This document shows, piece after piece, positions 7,429 through 60,566 of a stretch of 64,000 nucleotides of DNA. The DNA is from Patescibacteria group bacterium (lineage in GTDB: Bacteria; Patescibacteriota; Minisyncoccia; Portnoybacterales; UBA2143). The notes beneath the pieces are model-generated. The model was given only the letters and a program-made list of their open reading frames with translations. It had not been told where the DNA came from and did not search any database. Position numbers and translations under genes: made by a program. The stretch covers positions 1,980 to 65,979 of the forward strand of contig JAHJSM010000001.1 in NCBI GenBank assembly GCA_018830295.1, read 5' to 3'. Every line of letters begins with the position of its first letter. Within the stretch, counting starts at the first letter, position 1.

Positions 7429-7459
7429 GGGGGCTGCCCCCGTTGCGGGGGCAGCCCCC
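7429..7459. repeat. Family-A GC-rich perfect palindrome GGGGGCTGCCCCC-GTTGC-GGGGGCAGCCCCC
   Basis: Read directly; 13-bp arms. It lies in the spacer between the two transketolase subunit genes. Confidence 0.95.
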
Positions 7460-7467
7460 AAACTTAC

Positions 7468-8316
7468 TTAATCATTTTCACTTTTAATCTTTCCGCCTAA
7501 AGTCCTTAAACAAGCAAGCGCTTTCTTTGCTTCTTCAGGGCAAGGCGTTTTGCCGTGCCATGAATATTCCCATTCTATAAAATCAACTCCCTTGCCCGGA
7601 ATCGTATGGGCAATAATCAAAGTTGGTTTCTCAAAAATCGCTTTTGATTTATTGCAAGCGTCAATAATTTCCCTAATATTATGCCCGTCAACATCCAAAA
7701 CATGCCACCCAAACGCCTCGTATTTTTCTTTGAGCGGCTCTATTGGCATAACATCTTCTGTATAACCGTCAATTTGAATATTATTCCTATCCATAATTTG
7801 CGTCAGATTAAAAAGACGATACTTGCCCGCAAACATAACCGCTTCCCAAACCTGACCCTCATTATGTTCGCCGTCGCTCCCTAAACACCAAACCCAATTA
7901 TCTTTTTTATCAATCTTGCTAAACGAATAAGCCATTCCGCAAGCGATTGACAACCCCTGCCCCAAAGAACCGCCCGAGGTCTCAAGCCCCGGCAATTCCA
8001 ATCGGTTAGGATGTCCTTGCAAACGGCTGCCTAATTTTCGCAGTGTCTTTAATTCGCTCACGGGAAAATATCCCGCGCGCGCCATCGCCGCGTACATGAC
8101 TGGACAAATATGAGCGTTAGAAAGAATGAGGCGGTCTCTTTCTTCCCAGTCGGGTTTTTTGGGATTATGCTTCATTACCCCGCCTAAATAAAGAGCGGTA
8201 AAAACATCCGCCATCCCAAGCGACCCCGCCGAATGCCCCGACTTTGCTTCGGTCAGCATTTTAATAATATCCTCCCTAATCTCATTCGCCTTTTTGTCTA
8301 ATTCTTGTGTGTCCAT
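7468..8316 (-). CDS. Transketolase, N-terminal (thiamine diphosphate-binding) subunit
   Basis: GHSAGSLG and GSDGE...NEG motifs; 282 aa. Forms a split transketolase with the 6439-7410 product. Confidence 0.85.
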   Translation of the reverse strand: MDTQELDKKANEIREDIIKMLTEAKSGHSAGSLGMADVFTALYLGGVMKHNPKKPDWEERDRLILSNAHICPVMYAAMARAGYFPVSELKTLRKLGSRLQGHPNRLELPGLETSGGSLGQGLSIACGMAYSFSKIDKKDNWVWCLGSDGEHNEGQVWEAVMFAGKYRLFNLTQIMDRNNIQIDGYTEDVMPIEPLKEKYEAFGWHVLDVDGHNIREIIDACNKSKAIFEKPTLIIAHTIPGKGVDFIEWEYSWHGKTPCPEEAKKALACLRTLGGKIKSEND

Positions 8317-8322
8317 ATTTTT

Positions 8323-8736
8323 TTATGTTAATTTTAATTCTAATTTTTCAACTCTATTTTCTAAATTAAGCAATTGTTTTTTGTCATTTTTTTGATTAAG
8401 TTTAATTTCTCTTATGTCAGCTTTAATGTCCGCAAATTCCTGACTGTGTTTTCTTATAATTTTGCCGTGCTTTGTTAAAATATCTTCTATCGCTAAAACC
8501 CTTCGTTCTATGCTATTTAATTTAGTTTTTATATCTGATATATCTTCCTTCATTTTATCAAATTTCTCGTCCATCTTATTGAATTTTTTATCAACATTAT
8601 CAAATCCATTTTTAGTTATCATAGCCAAATTCTCAATCTCTTTTTTAAGATTTTTGTCAACATTTTCAAAACCTTGTTTGACTATAGAAGCCAAATTCTC
8701 AATTGTCATTTTTTTCTTTTCTTTTATAAATGGCAT
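8323..8736 (-). CDS. Small coiled-coil protein, paralog 2
   Basis: Repeated GF.NVDKK blocks and a C-terminal LENRVEKLELKLT, comparable to IERLELKLSV at the end of the 2472-2873 product. Confidence 0.5.
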   Translation of the reverse strand: MPFIKEKKKMTIENLASIVKQGFENVDKNLKKEIENLAMITKNGFDNVDKKFNKMDEKFDKMKEDISDIKTKLNSIERRVLAIEDILTKHGKIIRKHSQEFADIKADIREIKLNQKNDKKQLLNLENRVEKLELKLT

Positions 8737-9365
8737 GATTTTAATTCCTCAATTGATTTTTTGATATCTTCGCTTTTAAAAATGGCGCTTCCGACGGCTA
8801 AAATATCCGCGCCCGCTCGAACGACTTTTTGAGCCGTTTCTAAATTAATTCCTCCATCAACCTCTATTTTAACATTTTCATCCCTCTCCCGCAAAGCCCT
8901 AATTTTCCCCAAGGTCGCTTCTATAAATTCTTGTCCGCCGCGGCCAGGACGGACGGTCATTATTAAAACACTTAAAATACTTGAAACATTAAGAAATGGG
9001 CTTAACTCGTTTGCGGAGGTTTCGGGGTTGATGGCGATACTCGCTTCCAGACCGGCGTCTTGAATTTTTTTAATCACTTCGCCTAATTTTTTTGTCGCTT
9101 CGTAGTGGATAATAATCCTTTTGACGCCTGATTTAATCCAACTATCAATTACATCCTCCGGTTTCTCAACCATTAAATGCGCTTCCAGTTTTAAGTTTGT
9201 TTTTAACTTTTTTAAATCGGATGGATGATTCCATGTTATATTATCCACAAATTTCCCGTCCATCACATCTAATTGCGCCCACTCAACAAACGGCTCAATT
9301 TGCTTGATTTTATCTTTCAATTCCTCAAAATCTTTCGCGATAATAGCGGGAATAACTTGTATCAT
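8724..9365 (-). CDS. rpe: Ribulose-phosphate 3-epimerase
   Basis: DVMDGKFV and HLMV motifs; 213 aa. Confidence 0.9.
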   Translation of the reverse strand: MIQVIPAIIAKDFEELKDKIKQIEPFVEWAQLDVMDGKFVDNITWNHPSDLKKLKTNLKLEAHLMVEKPEDVIDSWIKSGVKRIIIHYEATKKLGEVIKKIQDAGLEASIAINPETSANELSPFLNVSSILSVLIMTVRPGRGGQEFIEATLGKIRALRERDENVKIEVDGGINLETAQKVVRAGADILAVGSAIFKSEDIKKSIEELKSCHL

Positions 9366-9368
9366 AAA

Positions 9369-9809
9369 TTATCTATTATCTATCTCTTTAATTTTACTCA
9401 ACCTCCTCTTATGCCTCTCTTCTCCGCTGAATTCTGTTTCTAGCCAGACGCGCGTAATTTTTTTAGCCGTTTCGGTGTCTAACGCTTTTCCCGCCAAGCA
9501 AAGGACATTCGTATCGTTATGCTCGCGCGATTGCAAGGCGGTAAAATCATCCCAGCAAACCGCCGCCCGAACCCCCGCAACTTTATTGGCGGCAATCGCC
9601 ATTCCCAACCCAGTGGAACAAATTAAAAGCCCCCTTCCTCCCGTTTCAGATACTTTCTTCCCCACGGCCAACGCAAAATCAGGATAATCATCCAAAGGAT
9701 CCAAATCCTTATTGCCTAAATCTTCAAACTCGTATCCTAATTCTAAAAGATATTTTTTAAGCTCTTCTTTTAAATAAAAGCCCGCGTGGTCACTGCCAAT
9801 GTAAAGCAT
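9369..9809 (-). CDS. rpiB: Ribose-5-phosphate isomerase B
   Basis: MLYIGSDHAGF... with LICSTG and VLCLAG motifs; 146 aa. Confidence 0.9.
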   Translation of the reverse strand: MLYIGSDHAGFYLKEELKKYLLELGYEFEDLGNKDLDPLDDYPDFALAVGKKVSETGGRGLLICSTGLGMAIAANKVAGVRAAVCWDDFTALQSREHNDTNVLCLAGKALDTETAKKITRVWLETEFSGEERHKRRLSKIKEIDNR

Positions 9810-9825
9810 AATAATAAAAATTTAA

Positions 9826-10833
9826 TTATTTCCCTCCAATAAACGCCGCGAAATCCGCTAAACGACAGGCGTATCCCCACTCATTGTCATACCATGCCAA
9901 AACCTTAACCAAATTTTTTCCTTGAACCATTGTTGACGACGCATCTATAATCGCCGAATAGGAATCTTCTTTGTAGTCAATAGAAACCAAAGGCGCCTCT
10001 TCAACTCTCAAAATCCCTTTCCATTTTTCTTCCTCCGCCGCTTTTTTGAAAACCGCGTTCACTTCTTCAACACTCGTTTCTTTTTTAACCCGAGCCGTAA
10101 AATCAACTAAAGAAACGGTTGGAGTTGGAACGCGAATCGCCATCCCGTGTATTTTTCCTTTTAATTCCGGGATTGTTTTTGTCACGGCGATAGCCGCTCC
10201 CGTAGTCGTCGGGACTAAAGACAAAGCCGCCGCCCTCGCCCGACGCAAATCTTTATGCGGAGAATCAAGCAAGCGTTGGTCGTTGGTATAACTATGAATT
10301 GTCGTCATTAACCCCGTTTCTATTTCAAAATTGTCGTTCAAAATTTTTGCCACTGGCGCCAAACAATTGGTCGTGCAAGAACCCATGGAAACAACATCGT
10401 CTTTTCCAAAATCATATTTATCGCTATTAACGCCTAAGATAAAATGAGGAACTTCCGAACCCTTGCAAGGCGCGGAAATAATCGCTTTTTGGGCTCCCGC
10501 CGCAAGATGCTTTTGCCCGCCTTCTAAATTCGTAAAAAATCCCGTGCACTCCAAAACAACTTCCACGCCCAAGTCCTTCCAGGGAAGTTTGCTTGGGTCT
10601 CTTTCCGCCAAGACCTTGACCGCTTTGCCGCCGACAACTATGCCGCTCTCGGTAAAATCAATCTCTTTGTCGTAGATTCCATAAACAGAATCATACTTCA
10701 AAAGATGAGCCAATGTCTTCGTGTCTGTCAAATCATTAACAACAGAAATATCCAAATCAGGATATTTTTCCAAAATCCTCCGAAAAACCGCCCGCCCAAT
10801 CCGCCCAAAACCATTTATCGCAATTTTTGTCAT
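9826..10833 (-). CDS. gap: Glyceraldehyde-3-phosphate dehydrogenase
   Basis: NGFGRIGR and SCTTNCLAP motifs; 335 aa. Confidence 0.95.
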   Translation of the reverse strand: MTKIAINGFGRIGRAVFRRILEKYPDLDISVVNDLTDTKTLAHLLKYDSVYGIYDKEIDFTESGIVVGGKAVKVLAERDPSKLPWKDLGVEVVLECTGFFTNLEGGQKHLAAGAQKAIISAPCKGSEVPHFILGVNSDKYDFGKDDVVSMGSCTTNCLAPVAKILNDNFEIETGLMTTIHSYTNDQRLLDSPHKDLRRARAAALSLVPTTTGAAIAVTKTIPELKGKIHGMAIRVPTPTVSLVDFTARVKKETSVEEVNAVFKKAAEEEKWKGILRVEEAPLVSIDYKEDSYSAIIDASSTMVQGKNLVKVLAWYDNEWGYACRLADFAAFIGGK

Positions 10834-10847
10834 ATTTTTTTTATAAT

Positions 10848-11381
10848 TTAACCCTCAAATCCACCTGTCACCCAATCCATTTCATTTTGCCAATTTCTGC
10901 TTGGGCAGCTCCATCCAGAACTTTCTGGATGAGGCCTGCCGCTTGTTTCCATATCTACAACACCTAAAACGAAAAATGCTCCTCGGGAAGAATCACAGCC
11001 AGAACTTCCTGCGCCGTAGCGATAATATCTATATCCGCCGCAAGATGCTGTAGTTTTTGGATCTCCCGATACGCTCGCTATAATTCCAGCTGTTTCTAAT
11101 GGCAAAATGAAAGGATCTCCGCTCCCTGGTCCACCGTTATATCCCACATCCCAGCCGCCACAATCATTATCTGTATTTCCTGGATAAACGCCATTGCTGT
11201 CATAATACAAATTCAAACCAAGAATTATTTGTCGCATATCTGATAATCTTGTCGCGTCCCGGCTCTTCTTCCGCGCGCTATTAATGCTGACCAAAACAAT
11301 GCTCGCCAAAATCCCGATAATAGCGATAACGACGAGAAGTTCAATTAGAGTAAAACCTTTTTTGTTTTTGAGATATTTCAT
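10848..11381 (-). CDS. Type IV pilin / pseudopilin-like protein with a prepilin N-terminal methylation motif
   Basis: KGFTLIELLVVIAIIGILASI at the N-terminus, with a Gly/Cys-rich C-terminal domain. Confidence 0.85.
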   Translation of the reverse strand: MKYLKNKKGFTLIELLVVIAIIGILASIVLVSINSARKKSRDATRLSDMRQIILGLNLYYDSNGVYPGNTDNDCGGWDVGYNGGPGSGDPFILPLETAGIIASVSGDPKTTASCGGYRYYRYGAGSSGCDSSRGAFFVLGVVDMETSGRPHPESSGWSCPSRNWQNEMDWVTGGFEG

Positions 11382-11389
11382 GCTAATTA

Positions 11390-11420
11390 GGGGGCTGCCC
11401 CCGCAACGGGGGCAGCCCCC
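11390..11420. repeat. Family-A palindrome (GCAAC spacer)
   Basis: Exact copy of GGGGGCTGCCCCCGCAACGGGGGCAGCCCCC, between the pilin start and the glutaredoxin stop. Confidence 0.95.
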
Positions 11421-11428
11421 GTCTTAAA

Positions 11429-11683
11429 TTACAACCCTAATTTTTCAACAATCTTATCCCTGTCAAATCCGACGATCATTTCTCCGTTAATTTCAATCAC
11501 AGGCACGCCCATTTGTCCTGATTTTTCAATCATTTCCTCCCTCGCTTTTTCATCCTCCGCCACATTAATATGTTCGTACTGAACGCCTTTTTCGTCCAAA
11601 AACGCCCCCAAAGTTACGCAATATGGGCAAGATGGAGTGCTGAAAACTCTAACTTTATTTTGACTATTTGTATTGTTTTCCAT
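11429..11683 (-). CDS. Glutaredoxin / NrdH-like redoxin. The likely start is M10 (MENN...); the tracked N-terminus MGTVPG is the translated B-repeat
   Basis: CPYC active site in a thioredoxin-fold context. Confidence 0.75.
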   Translation of the reverse strand: MENNTNSQNKVRVFSTPSCPYCVTLGAFLDEKGVQYEHINVAEDEKAREEMIEKSGQMGVPVIEINGEMIVGFDRDKIVEKLGL

Positions 11684-11695
11684 AATTTTAACACC

Positions 11696-11730
11696 GGGGA
11701 CAGTCCCCATTCAGAATGGGGACTGTCCCC
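11696..11730. repeat. Family-B palindrome GGGGACAGTCCCC-ATTCAGAAT-GGGGACTGTCCCC
   Basis: Read directly; 13-bp arms with a 9-nt spacer. Confidence 0.95.
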
Positions 11731-11747
11731 TTTTAATTACTGTCCCC

Positions 11748-12662
11748 TCACTCATTATTACTGATATACTTATACGCGCTTAACGCCGCTTTTGCCCCTT
11801 CGCCCGCCGCGATAATCATTTGTTTGTATAAGACCCCGCTCACATCTCCCGCGGCGAAAATATTAGGTCGCGAGGACGCGTTGCGTGAATTAATTTTTAT
11901 CTCGCCCCACTCATTTAATTCTACCACATTTTTAACTAAAGAGGAATTGGGGATAGAACCGATTGCGACAAAAATCCCTTCCACCGACATTTCTTTCATT
12001 TCTTCGGAAGCGCCGTTCTGATAAACCAAGCCGCTCACAAATTTATCCCCCTTTATTTCCTGAACCGTCGCGCCCGTCATAATCTCAATTTTGTCCGACT
12101 TTTCAAGCCGCTCCTGGAGAACCTCATCCGCCCTTAAAACCGAACGCGCCAAAAGATAGACCTTAGAAGCGTAAACAGCCGCCTCCAAAGCCGTATTCGC
12201 CGCCGAATTGCCCCCGCCAATCACAGCGACTTCTTTATCTTTAAACATGGGCGCGTCGCAGGTCGCGCAGAAAACAATTCCCTTCCCGATAAATTTTTCC
12301 TCATTTGGAAGACCCAATCTTTTTGGCGTTCTGCCCGTCGCAATAATAAGCGCCCTTCCCTCATAAGAACCGTCTTCCGTTTCCACCTCAACCGTCAATC
12401 CGTTATCCACAAGCAAGACATTTTTAACCCCCAAACCTTCTTTAATTTCTATTTCGTTTTTTTTCAACTGCCCAACCATCCTCTCAACCAATTCCGCGCC
12501 AGAGACCGGTTCAACCCCCGCGTAATTCTCAACCAAAGGCGCCAAGGCCGCCTGCCCGCCCCAACTCTTGGCAATCAAAAGCGTCTTCATTTTTTTCCGA
12601 GCCGCATAAATCCCCGCCGAAATAGCAGCCGGCCCCCCACCGATAATAATTAAATCATACAT
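11748..12662 (-). CDS. trxB: Thioredoxin-disulfide reductase
   Basis: GGGPAA FAD-binding site, CATCD redox motif and GGGNSA NADPH-binding site. Confidence 0.9.
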   Translation of the reverse strand: MYDLIIIGGGPAAISAGIYAARKKMKTLLIAKSWGGQAALAPLVENYAGVEPVSGAELVERMVGQLKKNEIEIKEGLGVKNVLLVDNGLTVEVETEDGSYEGRALIIATGRTPKRLGLPNEEKFIGKGIVFCATCDAPMFKDKEVAVIGGGNSAANTALEAAVYASKVYLLARSVLRADEVLQERLEKSDKIEIMTGATVQEIKGDKFVSGLVYQNGASEEMKEMSVEGIFVAIGSIPNSSLVKNVVELNEWGEIKINSRNASSRPNIFAAGDVSGVLYKQMIIAAGEGAKAALSAYKYISNNE

Positions 12663-12673
12663 AAGGTTATTTA

Positions 12674-13165
12674 CTATTTTAATTGGTTTTCTTTTGTTAA
12701 ATCAATCTTTAACTGATCAACCACCACAACTTTACTTTTTTCAAAAATATTCATCAAATTAGAATATTCTTTAAATAAATCCGGTGTATTAATGTTTTTA
12801 TAATCAAATTGAATTTGTAAATACTTGTCTTTTTGAATTTGTTCAATAAAATTATCAAAGTTGAAATCAACAACAGGATACAGGGTTTTATTAAAATCTA
12901 CAAATCCATACATTCTTATATTTAATTTGCCTTTTAATTTATCGAATAATTCTAAACTGAATGTTTTTGAATTTACAATAAAAACAAAATAAATTTCATT
13001 ATTATACAAACCAATTTCGCAAAAATCTGTTGTAATTGTTGGTAAATCTTCTTTAATCAGATTTCCATTATTATCATAATTATTTTTCGTATATTCTAAT
13101 TTAGAAACAAATTCCTTATTCTTGATCAGTATTTTGCGAAATTGGTTCAAGTCTTCAATGTTCAT
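12674..13165 (-). CDS. Hypothetical protein in a very AT-rich region
   Basis: 163-aa ORF rich in N, K, I and F. No family recognised. Its composition differs from the flanking core genes. Confidence 0.5.
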   Translation of the reverse strand: MNIEDLNQFRKILIKNKEFVSKLEYTKNNYDNNGNLIKEDLPTITTDFCEIGLYNNEIYFVFIVNSKTFSLELFDKLKGKLNIRMYGFVDFNKTLYPVVDFNFDNFIEQIQKDKYLQIQFDYKNINTPDLFKEYSNLMNIFEKSKVVVVDQLKIDLTKENQLK

Positions 13166-13326
13166 ATATAAATTTATTCTATTATAAACTCTGTCGGCTA
13201 TCCTATAGCCGACCTACATCGCGGGTTGTAAAATTTTGACTTCATAGCGCAATCTTTCGGATAGTTGTTCCGCAATGTTAAACCCCCGAGGTCTAACACC
13301 TCACCTTATCTGTGTATAAATAGATA

Positions 13327-13415
13327 TTGACAATAACAGTTATTTTGATACAATATAGTTAATCACTACGAAAAAGACCCTGATGCGGTTTCGTCCGCAT
13401 TGGGGGCTTTTTTGT
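13327..13415 (+). ncRNA. Candidate small antisense RNA: a strong sigma70-like promoter (TTGACA-N16-TGaTACAAT, 13327-13354) followed about 30 nt later by a hairpin plus T-run (13384-13415)
   Basis: Motifs read on the plus strand. There is no plus-strand ORF here. The transcript would overlap the 3' end of the BRO-N gene on the opposite strand. Confidence 0.3.
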
Positions 13416-14253: not shown

Positions 14254-14268
14254 AATTTATGGCAAAAA

Positions 14269-15895: not shown

Positions 15896-15915
15896 ATTTG
15901 TATTATAATATTTTT

Positions 15916-16146
15916 ATGTGTTTAGCTATTCCAAGCAAGGTTGTTAAAATTGAAGGAAAATGGGCGAATGTCCAAGCGGGCGACCATCAACATCGGGTTG
16001 ATTTGAGTTTGCTTAAAAATGTAAAAGTCGGCGATTATATTTTCATCCACGACGAACTGGCAATTAACAAAATTCCCAAGACCGAAGCGAAGAAAATCCT
16101 GAAAATGATAAAAGACCATACTCATACCTGCGACCATCATCATTAA
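15916..16146 (+). CDS. hypC: Hydrogenase maturation chaperone HypC/HupF family, with a His-rich C-terminal tail
   Basis: Begins MCLAIPSKVVKI, the canonical HypC N-terminus, and ends ...DHTHTCDHHH. The tracked ORF starts 18 nt earlier at a non-conserved Met. Confidence 0.8.
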   Translation: MCLAIPSKVVKIEGKWANVQAGDHQHRVDLSLLKNVKVGDYIFIHDELAINKIPKTEAKKILKMIKDHTHTCDHHH

Positions 16147-17348: not shown

Positions 17349-17441
17349 TTTTAAAAATAAGTATTCTGAAATTTATGAGCGTGTTGGGAGCCCTTTGGGC
17401 TAAAACGCGAAAAAATTTAGAATACGAAGTTTTTGTTTGTT

Positions 17442-39793: not shown

Positions 39794-40954
39794 CTATATC
39801 CTCTTATCTTTTTTAATATCCTGCCTTATTTTCTCCATAAAATCAAACATAAAACGCAAATTATGAATTGTCGCCAGGCGCGCCGCGAGTATTTCTTTTG
39901 CTCTGAAAAGATGATGTAAATAGGCGCGAGTGAAATTTTGACAAGTATAACACTGGCAATTTTTCATAATTGGTTTTTTATCTATTTTATAAGTTGTTTT
40001 AAAAATATCCAATTTGCCTCGCTCAGTCAATAGCGTCCCATGCCTCGCCAGTCGCGTCGGCTCAACGCAGTCAAAAAGGTCAATTCCTCTTTTAACCGCT
40101 TCTCTAACATCTTCTAAATACCCAATACCTAATAAATGGCGCAGCTTGTTTTCGGGAAGATAGGGAATAATCCAATCAAGCGCCTTTTTCATCTCGCCTT
40201 TCCCAAACGAACCTCCTATTCCAAATCCATCAAAAGGCATTTCGCCGATAAAGCGCGCGCTTTCTTTTCTTAAATCCTCAAAAAGACCGCCTTGAACAAT
40301 GCCAAAAAGAAATTGATTATCTTTATTTTTCGCCTTTAAACATCTTTCTGCCCAGCGATGCGTCCGTCCCATCGCCTTTTTTGTGTAATCATAATCTGCC
40401 AAAGGAGAAGAACATTCATCAAAAGCGAAAATAATATCAGCGCCTAAGTCCTCTTGAATCTTGATTGAAATTTCTGGCGTAAAGCGATGCGCGGAACCGT
40501 CCAAATGAGAGGTAAAATCAACCCCCTCCTCATCAATCTTGACTAATGAAGCATGGGAGGAATGGGGACAGTCCCCAATTTTTGGGGACTGTCCCCATTC
40601 CTTTTCCCCCTCTTTCAAAATCTTACCAACCTTATCTTGAATCGCCATCCCTAAACTAAAAACCTGAAAACCGCCACTATCAGTCGCCGTCACTCCTTGC
40701 CAATTCATAAATTTATGCAGCCCGCCCATCTTCTTTACAATTTTATTCCCCGGCTGAAGATACAAATGATAAGCGTTAGCCAAAACGCCCTCAAAACCAA
40801 TTTTTTTAATATCTTCCGGGGTTAATCCTTTAACCGACGCCTTAGTCGCCACGGGAAAAAACGCCGGCGTTCTCATTACCCCGTTAGCGGTTTTAATCAC
40901 TCCCAACCGCGCCTGCGATTTTGAATGTTTTTTTGTAATTTTGAAAAATGACAT
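39794..40954 (-). CDS. tgt: Queuine tRNA-ribosyltransferase. The likely start is M17 (MSFFKIT...); the tracked N-terminus MGAAPVAGAAP is repeat-derived. The gene carries an in-frame 33-nt palindromic insertion
   Basis: DSGGFQV, FDEC and CxCxxC...H zinc site motifs, collinear with E. coli Tgt. Confidence 0.9.
   Translation of the reverse strand: MSFFKITKKHSKSQARLGVIKTANGVMRTPAFFPVATKASVKGLTPEDIKKIGFEGVLANAYHLYLQPGNKIVKKMGGLHKFMNWQGVTATDSGGFQVFSLGMAIQDKVGKILKEGEKEWGQSPKIGDCPHSSHASLVKIDEEGVDFTSHLDGSAHRFTPEISIKIQEDLGADIIFAFDECSSPLADYDYTKKAMGRTHRWAERCLKAKNKDNQFLFGIVQGGLFEDLRKESARFIGEMPFDGFGIGGSFGKGEMKKALDWIIPYLPENKLRHLLGIGYLEDVREAVKRGIDLFDCVEPTRLARHGTLLTERGKLDIFKTTYKIDKKPIMKNCQCYTCQNFTRAYLHHLFRAKEILAARLATIHNLRFMFDFMEKIRQDIKKDKRI
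40564..40596. repeat. Family-B palindrome GGGGACAGTCCCC-AATTTTT-GGGGACTGTCCCC lying inside the tgt coding sequence (33 nt, in frame)
   Basis: Read directly. It translates as ...EWGQSPKIGDCPH... within a region that is about 27 aa longer than in E. coli Tgt. Confidence 0.9.
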
Positions 40955-40969: not shown

Positions 40970-41000
40970 GGGGGCTGCCCCCGCAACGGGGGCAGCCCCC
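40970..41000. repeat. Family-A palindrome (GCAAC spacer)
   Basis: Exact copy, in the tgt / SpoU methyltransferase spacer. Confidence 0.95.
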
Positions 41001-41476: not shown

Positions 41477-41507
41477 GGGGGCTGCCCCCGCAGCGGGGGC
41501 AGCCCCC
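41477..41507. repeat. Family-A palindrome (GCAGC spacer)
   Basis: GGGGGCTGCCCCCGCAGCGGGGGCAGCCCCC. Confidence 0.95.
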
Positions 41508-45115: not shown

Positions 45116-45146
45116 GGGGGCTGCCCCCGCAACGGGGGCAGCCCCC
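45116..45146. repeat. Family-A palindrome (GCAAC spacer)
   Basis: Exact copy, between the GH1 start and the mutM stop. Confidence 0.95.
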
Positions 45147-48270: not shown

Positions 48271-48279
48271 AAGTTAATT

Positions 48280-48310
48280 GGGGGCTGCCCCCGCAACGGG
48301 GGCAGCCCCC
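48280..48310. repeat. Family-A palindrome (GCAAC spacer)
   Basis: Exact copy, upstream of the proS start. Confidence 0.95.
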
Positions 48311-49742: not shown

Positions 49743-49745
49743 ATT

Positions 49746-50303: not shown

Positions 50304-50330
50304 AGTTTTAAATTTTTGATTTTATAATTT

Positions 50331-51122: not shown

Positions 51123-51125
51123 AAT

Positions 51126-52052: not shown

Positions 52053-52067
52053 AAGGAAATGAAATTT

Positions 52068-52098
52068 GGGGACTGTCCCTGTTGCGGGGACAGTCCCC
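52068..52098. repeat. Family-B palindrome with the A-type spacer (GGGGACTGTCCCT-GTTGC-GGGGACAGTCCCC)
   Basis: Read directly. It links the A and B families, which share the GTTGC/GCAAC spacer. Confidence 0.95.
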
Positions 52099-52116
52099 AA
52101 TCTGGTTTACATTATA

Positions 52117-53229: not shown

Positions 53230-54356
53230 CTTGACATATTTTGTTTGGTTAAAACTCCCAGCGTTTCCCGCGCGCATTTTTCCCAGGAGAATTTTTTAAT
53301 GTTCTGAAAGCCCTTTTCAATTAAACCCCTTCTCAACTCCCCGTCGCTTATTACTTTATACACTGCTTCTGATATTTTTTCAATGTTTTTTGGCGAAACG
53401 AAGAGCGCGCCCTCGCCCGCTACCTCCGGCAAAGAAGATGTCTCTGAAGCAATGACTGGACAACCCATCGCCTGCGCTTCCAAAATCGGCATTCCAAAGC
53501 CCTCGTAAAAAACAGGAAAAAGAAAAGCGGCGGCGTTTTTTAACAACTCCCATTTCTTCGCCTCGCTCACAAAACCCATTTCAACAATATCTTTATTCCC
53601 CGCAATTCTCCCAGCGAACGCCTCATAACCATACCCTCTTCCCCCCGCCAAAACCAACTTATGCGGCAACCCGTATTTTTTTTTAAACAACTCAAACGCC
53701 CCAATCATCCCCCCAATATTCTTCTTCCCCTCCAACCGCCCAATAAAAAGAATATAGGGACTGGAAAATGGGGGCTGCCCCCGAAACGGGGGGCAGCCCC
53801 CATTTTTATCAGGGGACAGTCCCCCGCCGCGGGGGCTGCCCCCGTCTTCATAGCCGTGATAAACAACTGATATTTTCTCCGGATTGGCTTTATATATTTT
53901 AACTAAATCGTTTTTAGTGTTTTGGGAAATGGCGATAACGCGCGCTGAATTTTTTAACGCGTATTTTGCGCTCCAACGGAGATACGCCAAACGCTTTTTG
54001 GGATACATTTCGGGGTAATGCTCATACTCCAATCCGTGAATAGTTGTGACTGAGTTTTTTGGATGAACAAGCGGCAGAACATGGACAGGAATAAAAAGAA
54101 TATCTGGCTCACGCGCCGCCATTTCAGCGGACAACCTGCATTGCGTCCACGACGGCAAGCCCCAGCGAAGCCGCTTAATTTTAAAATTCTCCGGCAATGG
54201 AAAATCAAAAATTTTGTTAAAAGGAGAATATAAAACAAAACGATGCTCTTCGCTTTCCTTAAGCATCGTTAAATGTTTAATTAACTGATAAGTATATTCT
54301 TCAACGCCCGTCCGCGGCTCAACAAAAGCCGCCATAGCGTTAATGCCGATTTTCAT
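53226..54356 (-). CDS. GT4-family glycosyltransferase carrying an in-frame 75-nt insertion built from palindromic repeats
   Basis: The GT4 C-terminal domain (FYEGFGMPILEAQAMGCPVIAS). The segment DGGSPRGGGLSPDKNGGCPPFRGQPPFS is encoded by the repeats at 53770-53844. Confidence 0.75.
   Translation of the reverse strand: MKIGINAMAAFVEPRTGVEEYTYQLIKHLTMLKESEEHRFVLYSPFNKIFDFPLPENFKIKRLRWGLPSWTQCRLSAEMAAREPDILFIPVHVLPLVHPKNSVTTIHGLEYEHYPEMYPKKRLAYLRWSAKYALKNSARVIAISQNTKNDLVKIYKANPEKISVVYHGYEDGGSPRGGGLSPDKNGGCPPFRGQPPFSSPYILFIGRLEGKKNIGGMIGAFELFKKKYGLPHKLVLAGGRGYGYEAFAGRIAGNKDIVEMGFVSEAKKWELLKNAAAFLFPVFYEGFGMPILEAQAMGCPVIASETSSLPEVAGEGALFVSPKNIEKISEAVYKVISDGELRRGLIEKGFQNIKKFSWEKCARETLGVLTKQNMSR
53770..53844. 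repeat. Family-A palindrome (GAAAC spacer, one extra G) fused to a chimeric B-left/A-left unit (GGGGACAGTCCCCC-GCCGC-GGGGGCTGCCCCC), all inside a coding sequence
   Basis: Read directly; 75 nt, a multiple of three. Confidence 0.9.
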
Positions 54357-54360
54357 AGGT

Positions 54361-55374
54361 TTACATCTGTTTCTTAGACATAATGCTTCTTTTGTAAACA
54401 TCTAAATGTTCCAAAGCAAGACCAGTTCCTTTTGCTACGCAAAGCAGGGGCTCTTTCGCGATGCGGCAATTAACGCCTGTCGCTTCGGTAATTAGAGCGT
54501 CCAAATTTCTTAACAACGCGCCGCCGCCGCTTAAAACCATACCCATATCCATAATATCAGCCACCAGTTCCGGAGGCGTCCCGCGCAAAACGGTTTTGAC
54601 CGTTTTAATAATTTCTCTAAGATTTTCCGACATCGCTTCCGTGATCTCGTTGCTTTTAACTTCAATCGTTTTAGGCAGTCCGCCGACCAAATCGCGACCC
54701 TGGATTTTCAAAGTCGTTTCTTCTTTTTGCGGCAAAGCGCTCCCTATTTTAATTTTAATCCTTTCCGCCGTTCCGTCGCCAATTGCTAAATTATGTTTTT
54801 TTCTAATATACTCGCTAATCGCCTGGTCAAGTTTGTCTCCGCCCACCCGAACCGATTCGCAGGAAACGATCCCGCCTAAAGAAATAACAGCCATCTCCGA
54901 AGTTCCGCCGCCAATGTCAATAATCATGTTACCCGCCGGTTTGTTGATGGCAAGCCCCGCCCCAATCGCCGCCAAAACCGGCTCTTTGACGATGTATGCG
55001 TTCTTGGCGCCCGCTTTAATAGTCGCCTCAATTACAGCTCGCCTTTCGGTGGACGAAACGCCCGCCGGAACAGAAACCATAATGTCTGGCTTAATAATCC
55101 GCCAACGCCCCAAAACCTTGCTGATAAAATAGCGAAGCATCGCCTCAGTAATGCGATAATCGGCGATTACCCCATCCTTCATTGGTCTGGAAACATTAAT
55201 CGTTTCAGGCGCTTTCCCAAGCATTTCTTTCGCTTGATTGCCAACCGCCAAAATTCTATTGTCTTCAATAGAAACAGCCACCACCGTCGGCTCGTTGACA
55301 ACAACGCCCTTTTTAGGAAGAAAAACCAAAGTATTAGCCGTCCCTAAGTCAATACCAATTTTTGTGATAAACAT
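54361..55374 (-). CDS. Second MreB-family actin homolog (Mbl/MreB paralog)
   Basis: DLGTANTLV and DIGGGTSE motifs; about 45% identical to the 45981-47033 product by eye. Confidence 0.85.
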   Translation of the reverse strand: MFITKIGIDLGTANTLVFLPKKGVVVNEPTVVAVSIEDNRILAVGNQAKEMLGKAPETINVSRPMKDGVIADYRITEAMLRYFISKVLGRWRIIKPDIMVSVPAGVSSTERRAVIEATIKAGAKNAYIVKEPVLAAIGAGLAINKPAGNMIIDIGGGTSEMAVISLGGIVSCESVRVGGDKLDQAISEYIRKKHNLAIGDGTAERIKIKIGSALPQKEETTLKIQGRDLVGGLPKTIEVKSNEITEAMSENLREIIKTVKTVLRGTPPELVADIMDMGMVLSGGGALLRNLDALITEATGVNCRIAKEPLLCVAKGTGLALEHLDVYKRSIMSKKQM

Positions 55375-55379
55375 AATAA

Positions 55380-56642
55380 TTAAGTGTTGACGCGCTTTAT
55401 TTCCGCTCCCATTTTTCTCAATCTTTCCTCAATCCTCTCGTATCCGCGGTCTATTTGGTAGATGTTTTCAATGACCGATTCGCCTTGAGCGGAGAGAGCG
55501 GCCGAGACCAACGCGATGCCGGCGCGAATATCGGGACTGACTAATCGCCGGCCATATAATTTCGTTGGACCTTGGACAATCACGCGATGAGGATCGCACA
55601 TAATAATATTCGCCCCCATTTGTTTGAGCGTATCAGTATAAAAAAGGCGTCCTTCAAAAATCGTTTCGTGAATTAAAGAAATTCCTTTCGCTTGAGTCAT
55701 TAAAACGGTAAATGGCGCTTGTAAATCGGTGGGAAATCCTGGATATTCATGCGTTTTTAAATCAACCGATTTCAATCGCGGCGACGGTTTGACCAAAACA
55801 AAATCCTTGCCTATTTCCAAATTAGCGCCCGCCTTATCAAGCAAAGACCAAAGCGCGTCCAAGTGATTCGGGTTCAACCCCGAAACCTTAATCGCGCTGC
55901 CCGCGGTTAATCCCAAGAGAACAAAACTCCCCGCTTCAATCCTGTCTGGAATAATTTGGCAATCCCCTTTGGTTAAATTTTCAACTCCTTCAATCTCCAC
56001 AAAAGGCGTTCCCGCTCCCTTTATTTTCGCGCCACGATCGTTTAAAAAATCAGCCAAAGAGGCGACTTCCGGTTCGCAGGCCGCGTTTTTTAAAAGTGTT
56101 TTTCCTTTAGCTAAAACGGCCGTTAAAATCATTGTCTCGGTGGCAGTCACGCTAATGACGGGAAATGTAAAATTAATTCCTTGAAGCCGTTTTTTTGCCG
56201 TTAAATTATACCCTTCTCCGTTTTCTTTAATCTTAACCCCAAACGCTCTGAACCCGTCCAAAAATATATCTCTCGGTCTTTGCCCAATGACGCATCCGCC
56301 CGGTCGCGGGAAAACAGCTGAACCGCAACGCGCCAATAATGGCCCTGTCATTAAAATTGAGCCCTTCAATCTGCTGGCGATGTCTGAATCAAAAGAAGCA
56401 GTTTGAATATTTTTTGCCCTGACCGTATAGACGCCCTTTAAGCCGTTTTTTATTTCAACGCCCACTCCTTTTAAAAGTTCCAACAAACGGAAAATATCTT
56501 CAATTTGAGGAACATTGGAAATCTTCCATTCTTGGTCCGTTAAAAGCGAAGCCGCCAAAACCTTCAAAGCGGCGTTCTTAGCGCCGTTCACTTTAATCTC
56601 CCCGCTCAATTTTCGCCCGCCTTGGATAATAAACTTTTCCAT
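55380..56642 (-). CDS. murA: UDP-N-acetylglucosamine 1-carboxyvinyltransferase
   Basis: GAKNAALK N-terminal motif and a Cys-containing active-site loop; 420 aa. Confidence 0.95.
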   Translation of the reverse strand: MEKFIIQGGRKLSGEIKVNGAKNAALKVLAASLLTDQEWKISNVPQIEDIFRLLELLKGVGVEIKNGLKGVYTVRAKNIQTASFDSDIASRLKGSILMTGPLLARCGSAVFPRPGGCVIGQRPRDIFLDGFRAFGVKIKENGEGYNLTAKKRLQGINFTFPVISVTATETMILTAVLAKGKTLLKNAACEPEVASLADFLNDRGAKIKGAGTPFVEIEGVENLTKGDCQIIPDRIEAGSFVLLGLTAGSAIKVSGLNPNHLDALWSLLDKAGANLEIGKDFVLVKPSPRLKSVDLKTHEYPGFPTDLQAPFTVLMTQAKGISLIHETIFEGRLFYTDTLKQMGANIIMCDPHRVIVQGPTKLYGRRLVSPDIRAGIALVSAALSAQGESVIENIYQIDRGYERIEERLRKMGAEIKRVNT

Positions 56643-56711
56643 TAAGTTTATATTATCTCATCGCAACCCGCTTGGCAAGACGGTTAATCGGTGTTAAAAT
56701 CGTAAAAGTAT

Positions 56712-57701
56712 ATGACTTTAAGAACGCGCCGCATTATTCTTTGTTTTGTTTTCCTTCTTTTTGTTTTTGCCGCGCCGGCAATCCTTTTTTATTCGTGGGG
56801 ATACGGCTTTGATTGGCAAAAGAAAAAACCCGTCTTAACTGGCGGATTTTATTTTGAATCCATCCCAAAAAAAGCGCGAATCGCGCTCAATGACAAACCG
56901 TCAAAAGAAACCCCTGTTTTTATTAAACGGCTTCTGCCTGGGGAATATCAGGTTAAGATAACCAAAGACGAATTTCAGCCCTGGCAAAAAAAATTAAAAA
57001 TTGAATCGGGACTGGTCGGCGAAGCGAGAAATATTCTTCTCATTCCTTTATCTCCTCAAATTGAGGTGATAGACGAAAATCTGCCCGATGATTTTTCTCT
57101 TGAAAAATTTCTTCTCCAAGAAAAAACAAATACCGATATTTTTTATATTGAAAAGCAAAATTATATTCTCTACAAAACAAACGCGAACAATTCCGCGCAA
57201 GAGCAAATCTGTCTCACCCCTTTGCCCGCGCAAGAATATAGCATTATCATTTCTCCTGTTCAAAAAATCTCCGTTTTGGGCGAAAACAATGAAATGTATC
57301 TCCTGAACCCCGAAACAAAGGCCTTTGAATTAATCGCGCGCGATGTCCAGAATGTTCAATTTTCCAGCGATAATAAAAAAGTCCTCTATTCCACGCCCAA
57401 TGAAATCTGGGTCTATTACTTGGAAGATATTTTAGGCCAGCCAAACAAAAAAGCAAAAGATAAAGAACTCATCACCCGCCTCGGAGAAAAAATTAAAAAC
57501 GCGGTCTGGTATGGAAAAACCAACGAACATATTATTTTCTCAACTGGACAAACCATTAAAATCGCTGAATTAGATGGACGCGACGAAAGAAACATCACTG
57601 ATATCATTAAATTAAACACTGACCAAATCGCCTACGACCCCAAAAAAGAAACCATCCTCGCCGTCAAAAACAAAAAACTCATCCAAATTTCCTTGAAGTA
57701 G
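56712..57701 (+). CDS. Membrane-anchored PEGA-domain protein
   Basis: N-terminal TM helix. IALNDKPSKETPVFIKRLLPGEYQVKITKDEFQPW fits the PEGA domain pattern. One of only two plus-strand genes. Confidence 0.7.
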   Translation: MTLRTRRIILCFVFLLFVFAAPAILFYSWGYGFDWQKKKPVLTGGFYFESIPKKARIALNDKPSKETPVFIKRLLPGEYQVKITKDEFQPWQKKLKIESGLVGEARNILLIPLSPQIEVIDENLPDDFSLEKFLLQEKTNTDIFYIEKQNYILYKTNANNSAQEQICLTPLPAQEYSIIISPVQKISVLGENNEMYLLNPETKAFELIARDVQNVQFSSDNKKVLYSTPNEIWVYYLEDILGQPNKKAKDKELITRLGEKIKNAVWYGKTNEHIIFSTGQTIKIAELDGRDERNITDIIKLNTDQIAYDPKKETILAVKNKKLIQISLK

Positions 57702-57706
57702 TTTTT

Positions 57707-57786
57707 GGGGACAGTCCCTCGCAACAGAGAGGGACTGTCCCCGAAACGCGTGATCGGGGGCTGCCCCCGCAACGGGGGCAGCCCCC
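57707..57786. repeat. Composite element copy 1: B-palindrome (GGGGACAGTCCCTC-GCAACAGAG-AGGGACTGTCCCC), linker GAAACGCGTGATC, then A-palindrome
   Basis: Read directly; AGATTA follows it. Confidence 0.95.
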
Positions 57787-57792
57787 AGATTA

Positions 57793-58000
57793 AAGATCTC
57801 TGTTATAAGGTCAGACCTTCTGAGCGCGACCTTTAGAAAGAAATAAAAGGTCAGACCTTTCCATCAGTTTGTCACGAGAAAATAAACTGTTACGAGTTGT
57901 CGTCTTGAAAGGTCTGACCTTTTATTTCTTTCAGAAGGTCTGACATCGCAAGTAGCGACATTTCTTAAGGTCGCGCTTGAGAGGTCTGACCTTTGAATTT
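57793..58000. repeat. About 200-bp nested imperfect palindrome built from AAGGTCAGACCTT / AAGGTCTGACCTT units between convergent genes
   Basis: At least six copies of the 13-bp palindrome. Arms of about 60 nt (57810-57862 against the reverse complement of 57905-57996) with a 35-nt extra segment in the right arm. Confidence 0.8.
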
Positions 58001-58008
58001 TGAATTGA

Positions 58009-58115
58009 AAAACCCCGCGAAAGCGGGGTTTTATCTTTGGGGACAGTCCCTCGCCGCGAGGGACTGTCCCCGGAACGCGTGATCGGGGGCTGCCCCCGCA
58101 ACGGGGGCAGCCCCC
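58009..58115. repeat. Hairpin AAAACCCCGCGAAAGCGGGGTTTTATC followed by composite element copy 2 (B-palindrome, GGAACGCGTGATC, A-palindrome)
   Basis: Read directly. The ORF-track peptide MGTVPRREGLSPERVIGGCPRNGGSPQI is its translation. Confidence 0.95.
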
Positions 58116-58187
58116 AGATTAACTTTGAAATGAAAAAAGGGATATTCAATTATGAATATCCCTTTTATTTTTTTGAAAAACGAACAA

Positions 58188-60323
58188 CTAACTCCAACAA
58201 TCAGGACTTAATTGACCGCTTCTTTTTACATACGGGCACATTTGATTGAATTTATCATATACCCATTTAATTTGTTTAAGAAACTGCCATAATAAGATAA
58301 ATGGCCCAAAAAACATTTTGATGGCTTTAATAACCATTTCTCTTCTTTCATACTTTATTCTTGATTTTTCATCTATTTGATGAATCGCTTCATCAAACTC
58401 CATCCCGCCTACAACCATCTGAAATGCTTTGAACAACTTGTCTGAAAAAGAACGCGTTTGAAGTTTTCCAAACTTTCCTAAGAATTTTTCAAGAATATCT
58501 ACGATTTCCTCTGACATAACAGGCAGTAATATTCTACATGCTTGCGCTTTGTTTTCTTCGTAGGCAAAAATAGAATATATTATCAGATAAGCCCGGCGAA
58601 GCAACTTAGCTTGTTGTATTTCATCTATGTTTTTATAATAACGATTTTTGTTAAGAAGCCGTTTAAGTTTGAATCGACTAATCGGCAAAAATACCATTGT
58701 CTTGTCGTCAGAGAACCATTGACTATATCGTAGCGCTTCTGGGTCATAATTAAGCGTTAGATATACCATCCAGCCAGAAAAACATAAGCACATTATCCAC
58801 GCAGAAGTAACAAGCAATACTTGAAAAATTGACATTACTTCAACAGCAAGAATTATATTATAAATCATCAATATCAGACCACCTACAATTATCGCGCCGC
58901 TAATACCCGTGGCAAAACTAATAAGCCAATTTAACGCTTTTTCGTTCGTAATTAAAGAACATATCGCGAAAAGTAATATAGATAAAGCCATTAGCCCAAA
59001 GATAAACAATCCCGGAATTCCAAGCATAAGCAACGCTTTCCAAAATATCGCCCAAAATACGGCAATCGCCTCGCTAAACAGATGTCCATAACGCAGAAAA
59101 AGTTCCGCTACAATACGCGCGCCGAACATAAGATAGATGAATTGAAAAACAAAATGATGTTCATTAAAGTTCGGAAGCCTGTGTCTGTCGTTATAAACCG
59201 CCCAATTCCCAAAATATAAACAAAAAACCGCGATAATGGCTATAGCGCCGAGAACGCCAAATCCTGGAAATAGGAAGTCAAAAAGCATTTTAGATACCGC
59301 AGCAAAAGCAAGCAATGCGAAAACAACAACAGATACAATCAAAACTACATCGGCATATTTTTTTGTTGAATCCTCAAGCCGGTCAGAGTAAGCCCTTAAA
59401 ACTTCTCTTTTATTTGGTGGTAAAATCCAACGGATAAGCGACCATAATAAAGCGCTAACAATCCAAAGCGGCGTTATTAACCCCAAAACAAAAAGCGGTC
59501 CCGCCCATTGCAAATCCGACCATGAAGCAACTGAATCGTAGAATAACCCGCCGCAAACAGCAGCCGCAGGAGAAAGAACCCAGAATACCAAATGCGCGAT
59601 TATTGTCCACCAAAACCCGGGACAGATATGACTTTTAAGTTGGACTGTTTGATCTCTCATCCATCCATAACTGCTTCTGGCTGTCCTATACAACCACCAA
59701 TATTTCCCAAATTCCTGATTAACGATAAAATCATTCGCATGATTTTTAATAGACAAGAAGTCGCGCCATGTTTTTACCTGGGCTCTAATATCATCATTCA
59801 ATCCGTTGCGATAAGCGCTAAACCCCATATCAAGACCCATTAAATTGTATGACCAAGACCCCCTTCCTTTGTCATGAACGGAATAATCAACTTCTTCCGC
59901 TAAAAGAGATTCAACCTTAAAGCGTTTTTGCCATCGCTCAAAACGAGTCAAAACGCGCGGTTGTTTTTGGTTTACAATTAGGTCTAAATAATTTTGTCTA
60001 ATGGCGTCTATCTCCTCCTTTGATATTCGCCGCAGAAACGATGAATACGACTCAAAATTAATATTATACCTCCACAATACCCGACGCCAAATTGAGACAG
60101 GCAACGATTCAATCATTGAGATAATGAATATGTATTGATTGCTATGTCCTATAAACATATTCAAAAATTTCCCTCGTGTTTCCCTGTCCTGAATCCGAAC
60201 TTCTGTTTGCGTAAATTCCCAGAATTTTAACGCTTGATGAATACTGTCATCAGGTCGTCGCGGCGTATTATCTACGCCAATACAATCAACAACTCTTTGA
60301 TATAGATCATTAATCTTGTTCAT
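58188..60323 (-). CDS. Large polytopic membrane protein (711 aa) with an N-terminal soluble domain, about 10 TM helices and a C-terminal soluble domain; function unknown
   Basis: Long intact ORF with an extended hydrophobic core. No family recognised. Confidence 0.7.
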   Translation of the reverse strand: MNKINDLYQRVVDCIGVDNTPRRPDDSIHQALKFWEFTQTEVRIQDRETRGKFLNMFIGHSNQYIFIISMIESLPVSIWRRVLWRYNINFESYSSFLRRISKEEIDAIRQNYLDLIVNQKQPRVLTRFERWQKRFKVESLLAEEVDYSVHDKGRGSWSYNLMGLDMGFSAYRNGLNDDIRAQVKTWRDFLSIKNHANDFIVNQEFGKYWWLYRTARSSYGWMRDQTVQLKSHICPGFWWTIIAHLVFWVLSPAAAVCGGLFYDSVASWSDLQWAGPLFVLGLITPLWIVSALLWSLIRWILPPNKREVLRAYSDRLEDSTKKYADVVLIVSVVVFALLAFAAVSKMLFDFLFPGFGVLGAIAIIAVFCLYFGNWAVYNDRHRLPNFNEHHFVFQFIYLMFGARIVAELFLRYGHLFSEAIAVFWAIFWKALLMLGIPGLFIFGLMALSILLFAICSLITNEKALNWLISFATGISGAIIVGGLILMIYNIILAVEVMSIFQVLLVTSAWIMCLCFSGWMVYLTLNYDPEALRYSQWFSDDKTMVFLPISRFKLKRLLNKNRYYKNIDEIQQAKLLRRAYLIIYSIFAYEENKAQACRILLPVMSEEIVDILEKFLGKFGKLQTRSFSDKLFKAFQMVVGGMEFDEAIHQIDEKSRIKYERREMVIKAIKMFFGPFILLWQFLKQIKWVYDKFNQMCPYVKRSGQLSPDCWS

Positions 60324-60451
60324 TAGCCCCCTCCTTTTCTGATTTAATGAATTATAAGATGCTTATATTATTTATTTATTTTTAAAGATCCAACCAAAAT
60401 ATAACAAATTATGTCGTTTTTGTCAAAATTTCCTTGGAATGATTGAGATGT

Positions 60452-60566
60452 GGGGACAGTCCCTCGCAACAGAGAGGGACTGTCCCCGGAACGCGTGAAT
60501 GGGGGCTGCCCCCGCAACGGGGGCAGCCCCCAGATTAAAAAAACCCCGCGAAAGCGGGGTTTTATC
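60452..60566. repeat. Composite element copy 3 (B-palindrome, GGAACGCGTGAAT, A-palindrome), followed by the same CCCCGCGAAAGCGGGG hairpin
   Basis: Read directly; it has the same components, in the same orientation, as copy 2. Confidence 0.95.

Follow-up and report, generated by a model that had tools for sequence, protein, structure and literature searches.

The 64,000-nt stretch of DNA analysed here (contig JAHJSM010000001.1, positions 1,980 to 65,979; below, the window) is chromosomal DNA of a bacterium of the Patescibacteria, or Candidate Phyla Radiation (CPR), and the question which it raises is what the short, GC-rich palindromes scattered along it represent. In the original prediction, these repeats were described as two related families that occupy operon spacers immediately upstream of start codons, and they were likened to repetitive extragenic palindromic (REP) sequences or to MITEs, the miniature transposable elements with inverted repeats. 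The results described below indicate that they are probably miniature REP doublets (REPINs), i.e. a form of non-autonomous palindromic mobile DNA; their structure, their distribution and their dynamics are those of REPs and REPINs.

The window contains 17 hairpin elements, corresponding to 34 arms, against a chance expectation of 0. They are assembled from two building units, both of them near-palindromes of 13 nt, viz. A (GGGGGCWGCCCCC) and B (GGGGACWGTCCCC), and every 13-nt arm is itself palindromic around a central W (A or T), a feature to which the original prediction did not refer. The two units differ in having G5/C9 (A) or A5/T9 (B), a difference in which the symmetry of the arm is retained. 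An element consists of two inverted units and a spacer, giving a total length of 31-35 nt and a distance of 17-22 bp between the arm centres; the arms are invariant and the spacer varies between 4 and 9 nt. All of the arms are paired locally into doublets, with none occurring singly, and there is about one arm per 1.9 kb, nearly all of them perfect. The exact GGGGRCWGYCCCC pattern is matched by 27 arms, compared with 0.00 in 100 shuffles, and when up to two mismatches are allowed 35 matches are found versus 0.97 expected. Since 34 of these are arms of the family and only the remaining one looks like a chance match, the window is practically free of decayed copies.

An exact recount reproduced family A at all of the ten predicted sites, viz. 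7429, 11390, 40970, 41477, 45116, 48280, 53770, 57756, 58085 and 60501. These doublets (GGGGGCTGCCCCC, loop, GGGGGCAGCCCCC) are always in the T...A configuration, and their loops, read on the plus strand, are GCAAC in seven cases and GTTGC, GCAGC and GAAACG in one case each. The seven sites assigned to family B also all hold elements, but they are less uniform than was supposed: only those at 11696 and 40564 are perfect B doublets (GGGGACAGTCCCC ... GGGGACTGTCCCC), the doublet at 52068 has one arm with a single mismatch (GGGGACTGTCCCT), that at 53812 is a chimera of a B arm and an A arm, and those at 57707, 58039 and 60452 are variants with 14-nt arms (GGGGACAGTCCCTC / GAGGGACTGTCCCC). Each of the variant doublets is separated from an A copy by 12-13 nt, and the two together make up a composite of ~85 nt, of which the window has three. 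Similarly, the GTTGC/GCAAC spacer said to be common to both families is present in some of the B copies, but others have ATTCAGAAT, AATTTTT or GCCGC, and it is the arms, but not the loop, that read the same on both strands. That A and B are variants of one type of element is nonetheless borne out by the chimeras at 53812, in a contig of the same lineage (L153) and in another Patescibacteria genome (L055; sequences compared with the window are cited by such numbers), and by the occurrence of A arms and B arms at one orthologous site in the gene for TGT.

In the distribution of these elements the strongest tendency is towards extragenic DNA, as 14 of the 17 are located within the 7.5% of the window that is non-coding (P ~1e-13). 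Eight of them, lying 8-18 nt ahead of a start codon, are where the original prediction had placed most of the repeats, between co-directional genes; however, three are inside open reading frames (ORFs) and six are elsewhere in non-coding DNA, four of these between convergent gene ends at 57.7-58.1 kb and two (the third composite) between the gene at 60576-61121 and the next start at 60323. The first of the eight is an A doublet at 7429..7459 (loop GTTGC on the plus strand), which lies between the split transketolase genes, 8 nt past the stop and 18 nt before the ATG, with a predicted RNA fold of -38.1 kcal/mol. It is followed by an A doublet with a GCAAC loop in the glutaredoxin-pilin spacer (11390..11420; 8 nt before the ATG), which is also found in L169, a relative with 95-99% identity, and by a B doublet with a 9-nt spacer between the thioredoxin reductase and glutaredoxin genes (11696..11730; 12 nt before the ATG). 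Further A doublets are found in the SpoU-TGT spacer (40970..41000; 15 nt before the ATG), 14 nt before the ATG of the SpoU methylase and downstream of a conserved terminator-like hairpin (41477..41507; loop GCAGC), in the Fpg-GH1 spacer (45116..45146), and 9 nt before the ATG of a class-II aminoacyl-tRNA synthetase (aaRS; 48280..48310). The last of the eight is the B doublet at 52068..52098, of which one arm is imperfect; it precedes the ATG of the DNA polymerase III delta' gene by 15 nt.

Positions of this kind would be expected if the repeats were RNA elements under selection in operon mRNAs, serving as barriers to 3'-exonucleases, as processing sites or as modulators of the initiation or termination of translation at the adjacent genes. 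These eight copies are mostly 3-17 nt past a stop codon and 8-18 nt before a start codon, and when 13 intercistronic copies are taken together (those of the window and of its lineage), the hairpin is located a median of 8 nt past the stop and 12 nt before the ATG. However, the gene spacers are very short everywhere (the median in the window is 27 nt), and due to this nearness to start codons is not specific to the elements. The orientation of the elements gives no better indication: five of the six classifiable A copies in the window are alike, but this bias vanishes in a larger set, where the loop orientations relative to the coding strand number 18:14. A role of the element as a substitute for the Shine-Dalgarno sequence was also considered and rejected, as most genes in the window, with or without an element, lack such a sequence anyway; their leaders are AT-rich, and a strong AGGAGG-like site is present at about six genes.

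If the elements were selected for their effects on these operons, then their absence from the same spacers in related organisms, and their polymorphism among nearly identical ones, would be difficult to explain. In relatives with 75-81% identity in TGT, the gene order is kept but the elements are missing from the SpoU-TGT spacer, the spacer between a hypothetical gene and SpoU, the Fpg-GH1 spacer and the one upstream of the aaRS. Thus, the SpoU-TGT spacer of L123 and L126 is of 4 nt and has no element, the copy at 41477 is absent in L123, L124 and L126, and that at 45116 in L124, while the copy at 48280 is present in L158 and L181, which are 95-97% identical to the window. There is 1 element in 7 kb of L123, there are 2 in 21 kb of L124 and 0 in 12 kb of L126, whereas the matching 10 kb of the window has 5. 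Even L161, which is 98% identical, has an empty site at 52068, where the window carries about 52 extra nt. Another example is provided by L148 and L153 (88-96% identical in the aligned blocks), which have one and three tandem elements, respectively, at the same locus, with the outer flanks precisely conserved; at this locus a loop has also been flipped and an A doublet replaced by a chimera. The search of related genomes for the palindrome, which had been proposed as a check, found the exact A doublet only in 55 JGI metagenome contigs from a few samples, several of them 95-98% identical to the window, and doublets of GGGGACWGTCCCC in many phyla. In four comparisons of filled and empty sites no consistent target-site duplication was seen, the AT-rich flanks yielding ambiguous matches only. 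In 42 oriented A copies the flanking DNA is rich in A+T and varies from copy to copy, the only common feature being a weak, one-sided NNNTTA at +4 to +6.

The claim that the repeats would form very stable hairpins has held up. The predicted structure is a stem of 14-20 bp with a 3-nt loop, in which the outermost loop bases usually pair and the flanks (T before, A after) often lengthen the stem by A-T pairs, and its predicted energy is -28 to -42 kcal/mol for the RNA form and -20 to -27 kcal/mol for the DNA form (z -7 to -9). The copy at 45116, whose stem is extended by AAATTT/AAATTT, reaches -41.8 kcal/mol as RNA and -27.3 kcal/mol as DNA. The REPs of E. coli stabilise the mRNA upstream of them, and those within about 15 nt of a stop codon reportedly cause ribosome stalling, with effects on termination and mRNA decay; many copies in the present case are 3-8 nt past a stop codon. 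As such hairpins are certain to form in the polycistronic mRNAs, a side effect on decay or translation is plausible. However, copies are also present inside ORFs (about one-fifth of them) and between convergent genes, and a scan of the window revealed no Rfam family at gathering score. Together with the short spacers, the unbiased orientation and the turnover among relatives, this speaks against the specific tie to start codons and regulation that had been suggested, and it is unlikely that selection for an RNA function explains the repeats.

GC-rich stem-loops between genes could also be intrinsic transcription terminators, possibly acting in both directions, and a loose scan for terminators does flag a few of the copies, mostly on the non-coding strand. 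However, on the coding strand only the copy at 52068 is flagged (tail ATTTCATTTC), and no copy has a clear U-tract; the stem is followed on this strand by A-rich sequence, and the flanking T and A residues extend the stem. Moreover, the next start codon is just 8-18 nt away within an operon, some copies are in frame within ORFs, and canonical terminators with U-tracts are located nearby, at 58008-58030, 58135-58166 and 60541-60563. There is thus hardly any probability that termination is what these elements are for.

The architecture of the repeats is best understood by comparison with REPINs. A REPIN is made of two inverted REPs, each a palindrome of ~14 bp, with a variable spacer between them, and it is extragenic and associated with a single-copy, vertically inherited REP-associated tyrosine transposase (RAYT) (PMC3337134; bioRxiv 10.1101/2021.07.10.451892). 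In Pseudomonas fluorescens SBW25 the REP cores are GGGGGCTTGCCCCC (GI), GCGGGCTTGCCCCGC and GGGAGCTTGCTCCC, forming doublets of the TT-AA or AA-TT kind (PMC3337134). The window elements share with the REPs and REPINs of Pseudomonas, Enterobacteria and Neisseria (Bertels & Rainey 2011, Nunvar 2010, Ton-Hoang 2012) the doublets of inverted palindromes, the variable spacer and the alternative of T...A and A...T configurations. They further share the extragenic bias, the differences between strains, the tandem clusters and, in relatives, a single-copy syntenic Y1 transposase with elements of the same kind at its flanks, and the A arm of the window differs from the GI core by one central base. They differ in their length of 31-35 nt as compared with about 100 nt, in having perfect stems and no GTAG-like head, in that about one-fifth are in frame in protein genes, in the Patescibacteria host with its genome of ~0.75 Mb, and in that the window and ~350 kb of lineage contigs yielded no cognate RAYT. 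The likeness to REP or MITE elements that had been suggested is thus correct, and it can be sharpened to the doublet (REPIN) architecture. MITEs in the strict sense are derived from insertion sequences (IS), of which they have the terminal inverted repeats, and they create target-site duplications. The window elements resemble MITEs such as Correia elements in being short, non-autonomous inverted-repeat elements in gene spacers; however, they show no target-site duplication, no parental IS was seen (no IS in the window is bounded by the arms), and their arms are themselves palindromic. A search of the literature for the exact 13-mers gave only irrelevant eukaryotic matches.

The symmetry of the arms is also compatible with double-stranded binding sites, either for a dimeric host protein (a nucleoid protein or a regulator) or, as DNA-uptake signals, for the type IV pilus or competence system of a CPR cell that scavenges DNA. 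Each arm is a 13-bp site with two-fold symmetry, which is kept in the difference between A and B; arms that are nearly all perfect, at about one per 1.9 kb, recall uptake sequences; the chimeric doublets suggest that the arms are independent modules; and a pilin gene is present in the window. However, single arms do not occur, the spacing of 17-22 bp between arm centres is unsuited to cooperative binding, and the A type is limited to a few samples. In addition, the same core flanks RAYT genes in relatives, by which a binding protein is already supplied. We therefore regard binding or uptake sites as a very unlikely explanation of these repeats, and return to the interpretation that they are REPINs.

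The search for a transposase was carried out locally with IS200 and RAYT query sequences. It identified one ORF in L131, L173 and L178, contigs of one of the Portnoybacteria which also has A-type hairpins; this ORF matches the Y1 transposase family PF01797 (E = 3.5e-12), has the HUH and Tyr motifs, and is flanked on both sides by identical perfect nested palindromes of TGGAGCWGCTCCA, 58-60 nt in length. The palindrome arm flanking the RAYT in L173 is similar to the third P. fluorescens core, GGGAGCTTGCTCCC. Homologues of this protein are common in Patescibacteria and are annotated in some sources as "REP element-mobilizing transposase RayT". In four further contigs (L184-L187) the gene has the same neighbourhood, consisting of a giant LTD/beta-helix protein, the RAYT, an NTP-transferase, sigma-70 and DUF5667, with the NTP-transferase missing after the RAYT in two of the four; this shared neighbourhood suggests that the RAYT of Patescibacteria is a vertically inherited single-copy gene. 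In L184 and L185, a REPIN of ~52 nt is present at the RAYT and in each of the next three spacers, with the structure GGGACTGTCCC-TAAGATACAGTCCTT|AAGGACTGTATCTTA-GGGACAGTCCC. Its core, GGGACWGTCCC, is the core of the window B arms, and GAGGGACTGTCCC is identical to the variant B arm of the window. L186 and L187 have the same layout with palindromes of the AAGGACGTTCCTT and AAGGCCGTGCCTT types. The flanking palindromes differ by lineage, so that the RAYT and its palindrome co-vary. Of the two types in the window, B is more firmly linked to this enzyme than A.

In the mechanism which we envisage, a single-copy RAYT-type transposase (HUH/Y1) would generate the copies and mobilise them in trans; its substrate would be the hairpin formed by single-stranded DNA, and no target-site duplication would result. 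The set of copies turns over quickly, by gain and loss, by tandem accretion beside existing copies, by inversion of loops and by recombination between A and B to give chimeras. The copies that survive are only those which do little harm, either in the short AT-rich spacers or, in frame, in tolerant surface loops and linkers. The stable RNA hairpins in operon mRNAs would then be a by-product, which may alter mRNA decay or the translation of neighbouring genes.

Copies in frame within genes are found at two places in the window. The B doublet at 40564..40596 (minus strand) encodes aa 120-131 of TGT (WGQSPKIGDCPH), part of a variable surface loop whose length differs among 29 homologues. In the same loop L123 (81% identical) has an A-type element (GGGGGCAGCCCCC-GTTGC-GGGGGCTGCCCCC) and L124 (75% identical) a B copy with a spacer near-identical to that in the window; other relatives have relics, nothing, or peptides of another palindromic repeat family. 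Peptides of the EIAASRTPRND- or LLRRCAPRND-type are found in this loop in P0003, P0006, P0008 and P0050 (alignment columns ~140-190), and as they look like the in-frame product of a different GC-rich palindromic repeat, the loop appears to have accepted such elements repeatedly. The second place is 53770..53843 (minus strand), where an A doublet with a 6-nt loop and the B/A chimera together encode aa 187-211 of a GT4 glycosyltransferase, exactly in the linker between its two Pfam domains; this pair is conserved in L151 and L161. When the window and related metagenome contigs are considered together (91 non-redundant copies), 30 copies have at least 40 open codons on each side and ~17 (~19%) are deep in long ORFs and in frame, being read as Gly/Ala/Pro-rich peptides of 10-12 codons. 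Four of the intragenic copies were checked by Pfam (Mur ligase, UvrD, RecG and glutamyl-tRNA synthetase), and in each the domain match spans the insert. In a Mur ligase gene of two related strains, an A copy occurs at the same place (L133, 7311; L162, 675), with different loops and flanking codons (QGAAPVAGAAP vs MGAAPATGAAP). In L179 (4796-4827), the gene for a giant LTD protein is frameshifted exactly at an A copy with a loop of 6 instead of 5 nt; the gene may be truly disrupted, or else a homopolymer was wrongly assembled.

In this respect the elements recall the Rickettsia palindromic elements (RPEs), reportedly described by Ogata et al. in 2000 as palindromes of 100-150 bp that are AT-richer and lie in frame in housekeeping genes. 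The two are alike in the presence of palindromes in frame in housekeeping genes of a reduced genome, where they are translated as extra surface peptides; they differ in that RPEs have no known link to a RAYT, whereas the window elements insert 10-12 Gly/Ala/Pro-rich codons and most of their copies are intergenic. RPEs are also mentioned in PMC10969869.

Several observations weigh against the interpretation of these repeats as REPINs. A search of the window and of ~350 kb of lineage contigs turned up neither a RAYT nor an IS200-like gene, and among the 120 best RAYT homologues none is on the 744,622-bp contig that carries the TGT of the window. L173 is the sole organism in which an A-type copy and a RAYT were found together, but the palindrome on either side of its RAYT is a different one, which leaves the A family without a demonstrated cognate enzyme. 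When the RAYT of this genome was sought through synteny, the window showed no homologue of the RAYT neighbours (NTP-transferase, sigma-70 and DUF5667); L179 and L170 hold the upstream neighbours of the RAYT, but these contigs end too early, and a protein search found no protein identical to the giant protein of L179 on a long contig. The elements are three times shorter than typical REPINs, ~19% of them are intragenic, which is unusual for extragenic palindromes, and they have no GTAG-type 5' head, the weak NNNTTA flank being the only comparable signal. The REPs of E. coli and Pseudomonas have a conserved 5' tetranucleotide head, GTAG or GTGG; however, this is a trait of the REPs of Proteobacteria, by which the class as a whole may not be defined. 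Lastly, imperfect arms are nearly absent, which is consistent with a family that is young or has been homogenised, although selection acting on the sequence itself could be the cause as well.

Beyond the lineage of the window, at least 120 stretches with doublets of GGGGACWGTCCCC are present in the genome collection, whereas roughly 10 are estimated by chance. They come from many phyla, with Planctomycetota, Actinomycetota, Omnitrophota, Coriobacteriia and Patescibacteria among the groups represented, often with several per genome. Although the pattern also permitted non-palindromic variants, there is a strong preference for the palindromic one, A...T. Their occurrence in so many phyla is accounted for by the likeness to the REP core. 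One of them, in the Patescibacteria sequence L055, is the same B-arm/A-arm chimera as at 53812 of the window; another, in an Allosphingosinicella metagenome-assembled genome (L076), is a tandem array of nine with an 18-nt period. A neighbouring protein shared by the 120 GGGGACWGTCCCC-doublet loci was sought, but the only recurrent ones are ABC ATPases, response regulators and SDRs; none of the loci has a RAYT within ~4 kb. It is possible, if not quite probable, that Patescibacteria have their own vertically inherited REPIN-RAYT systems, in which the RAYT has a conserved gene neighbourhood and the REPIN, reduced to no more than a doublet of 31 nt, persists in a genome of ~0.75 Mb and is regularly incorporated, as Gly/Ala/Pro loops, in proteins that are essential (TGT, Mur ligase, UvrD, RecG and GluRS), and that the GGGGNCWGNCCCC core is shared with the REPs of Pseudomonas and with the doublets in Planctomycetota, Actinomycetota, Omnitrophota and others. 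If this is true, it would imply an ancient and conserved code of RAYT-DNA recognition and an association of REPINs with their hosts far beyond Proteobacteria, to which the analysis of REPIN-RAYT systems has so far been almost entirely confined; a search of the literature found no paper tying them to the CPR. REPINs in the ultra-reduced genome of an episymbiont would be relevant to the question of whether such elements are parasites that the host tolerates or partners of use to it, and what sets this case apart is the minimal size, the host and the frequent in-frame residence in essential genes, with short palindromes able to remodel the loops of essential proteins. With them, variation between strains and breaks in the assembly of CPR metagenome bins would also have a concrete source.

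With regard to assembly, the short-read contig L122 stops inside A copies at both of its ends and L121 ends ~80 nt past the 7429 copy, indicating that the repeats fragment assemblies of this organism. They also affect annotation: programs that choose the first start run several genes through the elements, which are stop-free (e.g. from TTG at 7461, 41002, 41513, 45175 and 52100), and because such GC-rich elements let gene callers lengthen ORFs, the adjacent start codons are often mis-annotated.

The assignment of the window to a Patescibacteria chromosome is consistent with its gene content, which is that of chromosomal housekeeping: besides the split transketolase, pilin, glutaredoxin, thioredoxin reductase, TGT, SpoU methylase, Fpg, class-II aaRS and DNA polymerase III delta' genes mentioned above, it includes GAPDH, a NiFe hydrogenase subunit and GT4 glycosyltransferases. 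The closest named relatives of its TGT protein are Candidatus Portnoybacteria, and 5.3 kb are identical to contig JAHJOZ010000019.1 (GCA_018820055.1). The G+C content is ~40%, GC skew is strongly negative throughout, the minus strand carries 65 of the 66 genes and the coding fraction is 92.5%; a scan for tRNA genes found none. A phage origin was considered and rejected in view of this gene content, and a giant gene of 6.5 kb had no match in phage records by megablast; a scan of viral contigs for the repeats gave only 2 matches, GC-rich and unrelated.

The non-coding region near the convergent gene ends contains further repeats. The first composite (57707..57793) consists of a variant B doublet, 13 nt and an A doublet, and the second (58039..58122) is a copy of it; L161 has one composite in this region, whereas the window has two, flanking an insert of ~250 nt. 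At 57802-57999 there is a nested inverted repeat of ~195 nt with five units of a third palindrome of like design (AAGGTCWGACCTT). The repeat has no other site in the window. L161 lacks it, and L151 has a shorter form of it as well as another copy beside the 52106 site; in all probability it represents a separate family, REPIN-like or of the MITE kind. The third composite (60452..60538) adjoins a canonical terminator, and an identical bidirectional terminator (AAAACCCCGCGAAAGCGGGGTTTT) is present at both 58008-58030 and 60541-60563, so placed that it adjoins two of the three composites on opposite sides.

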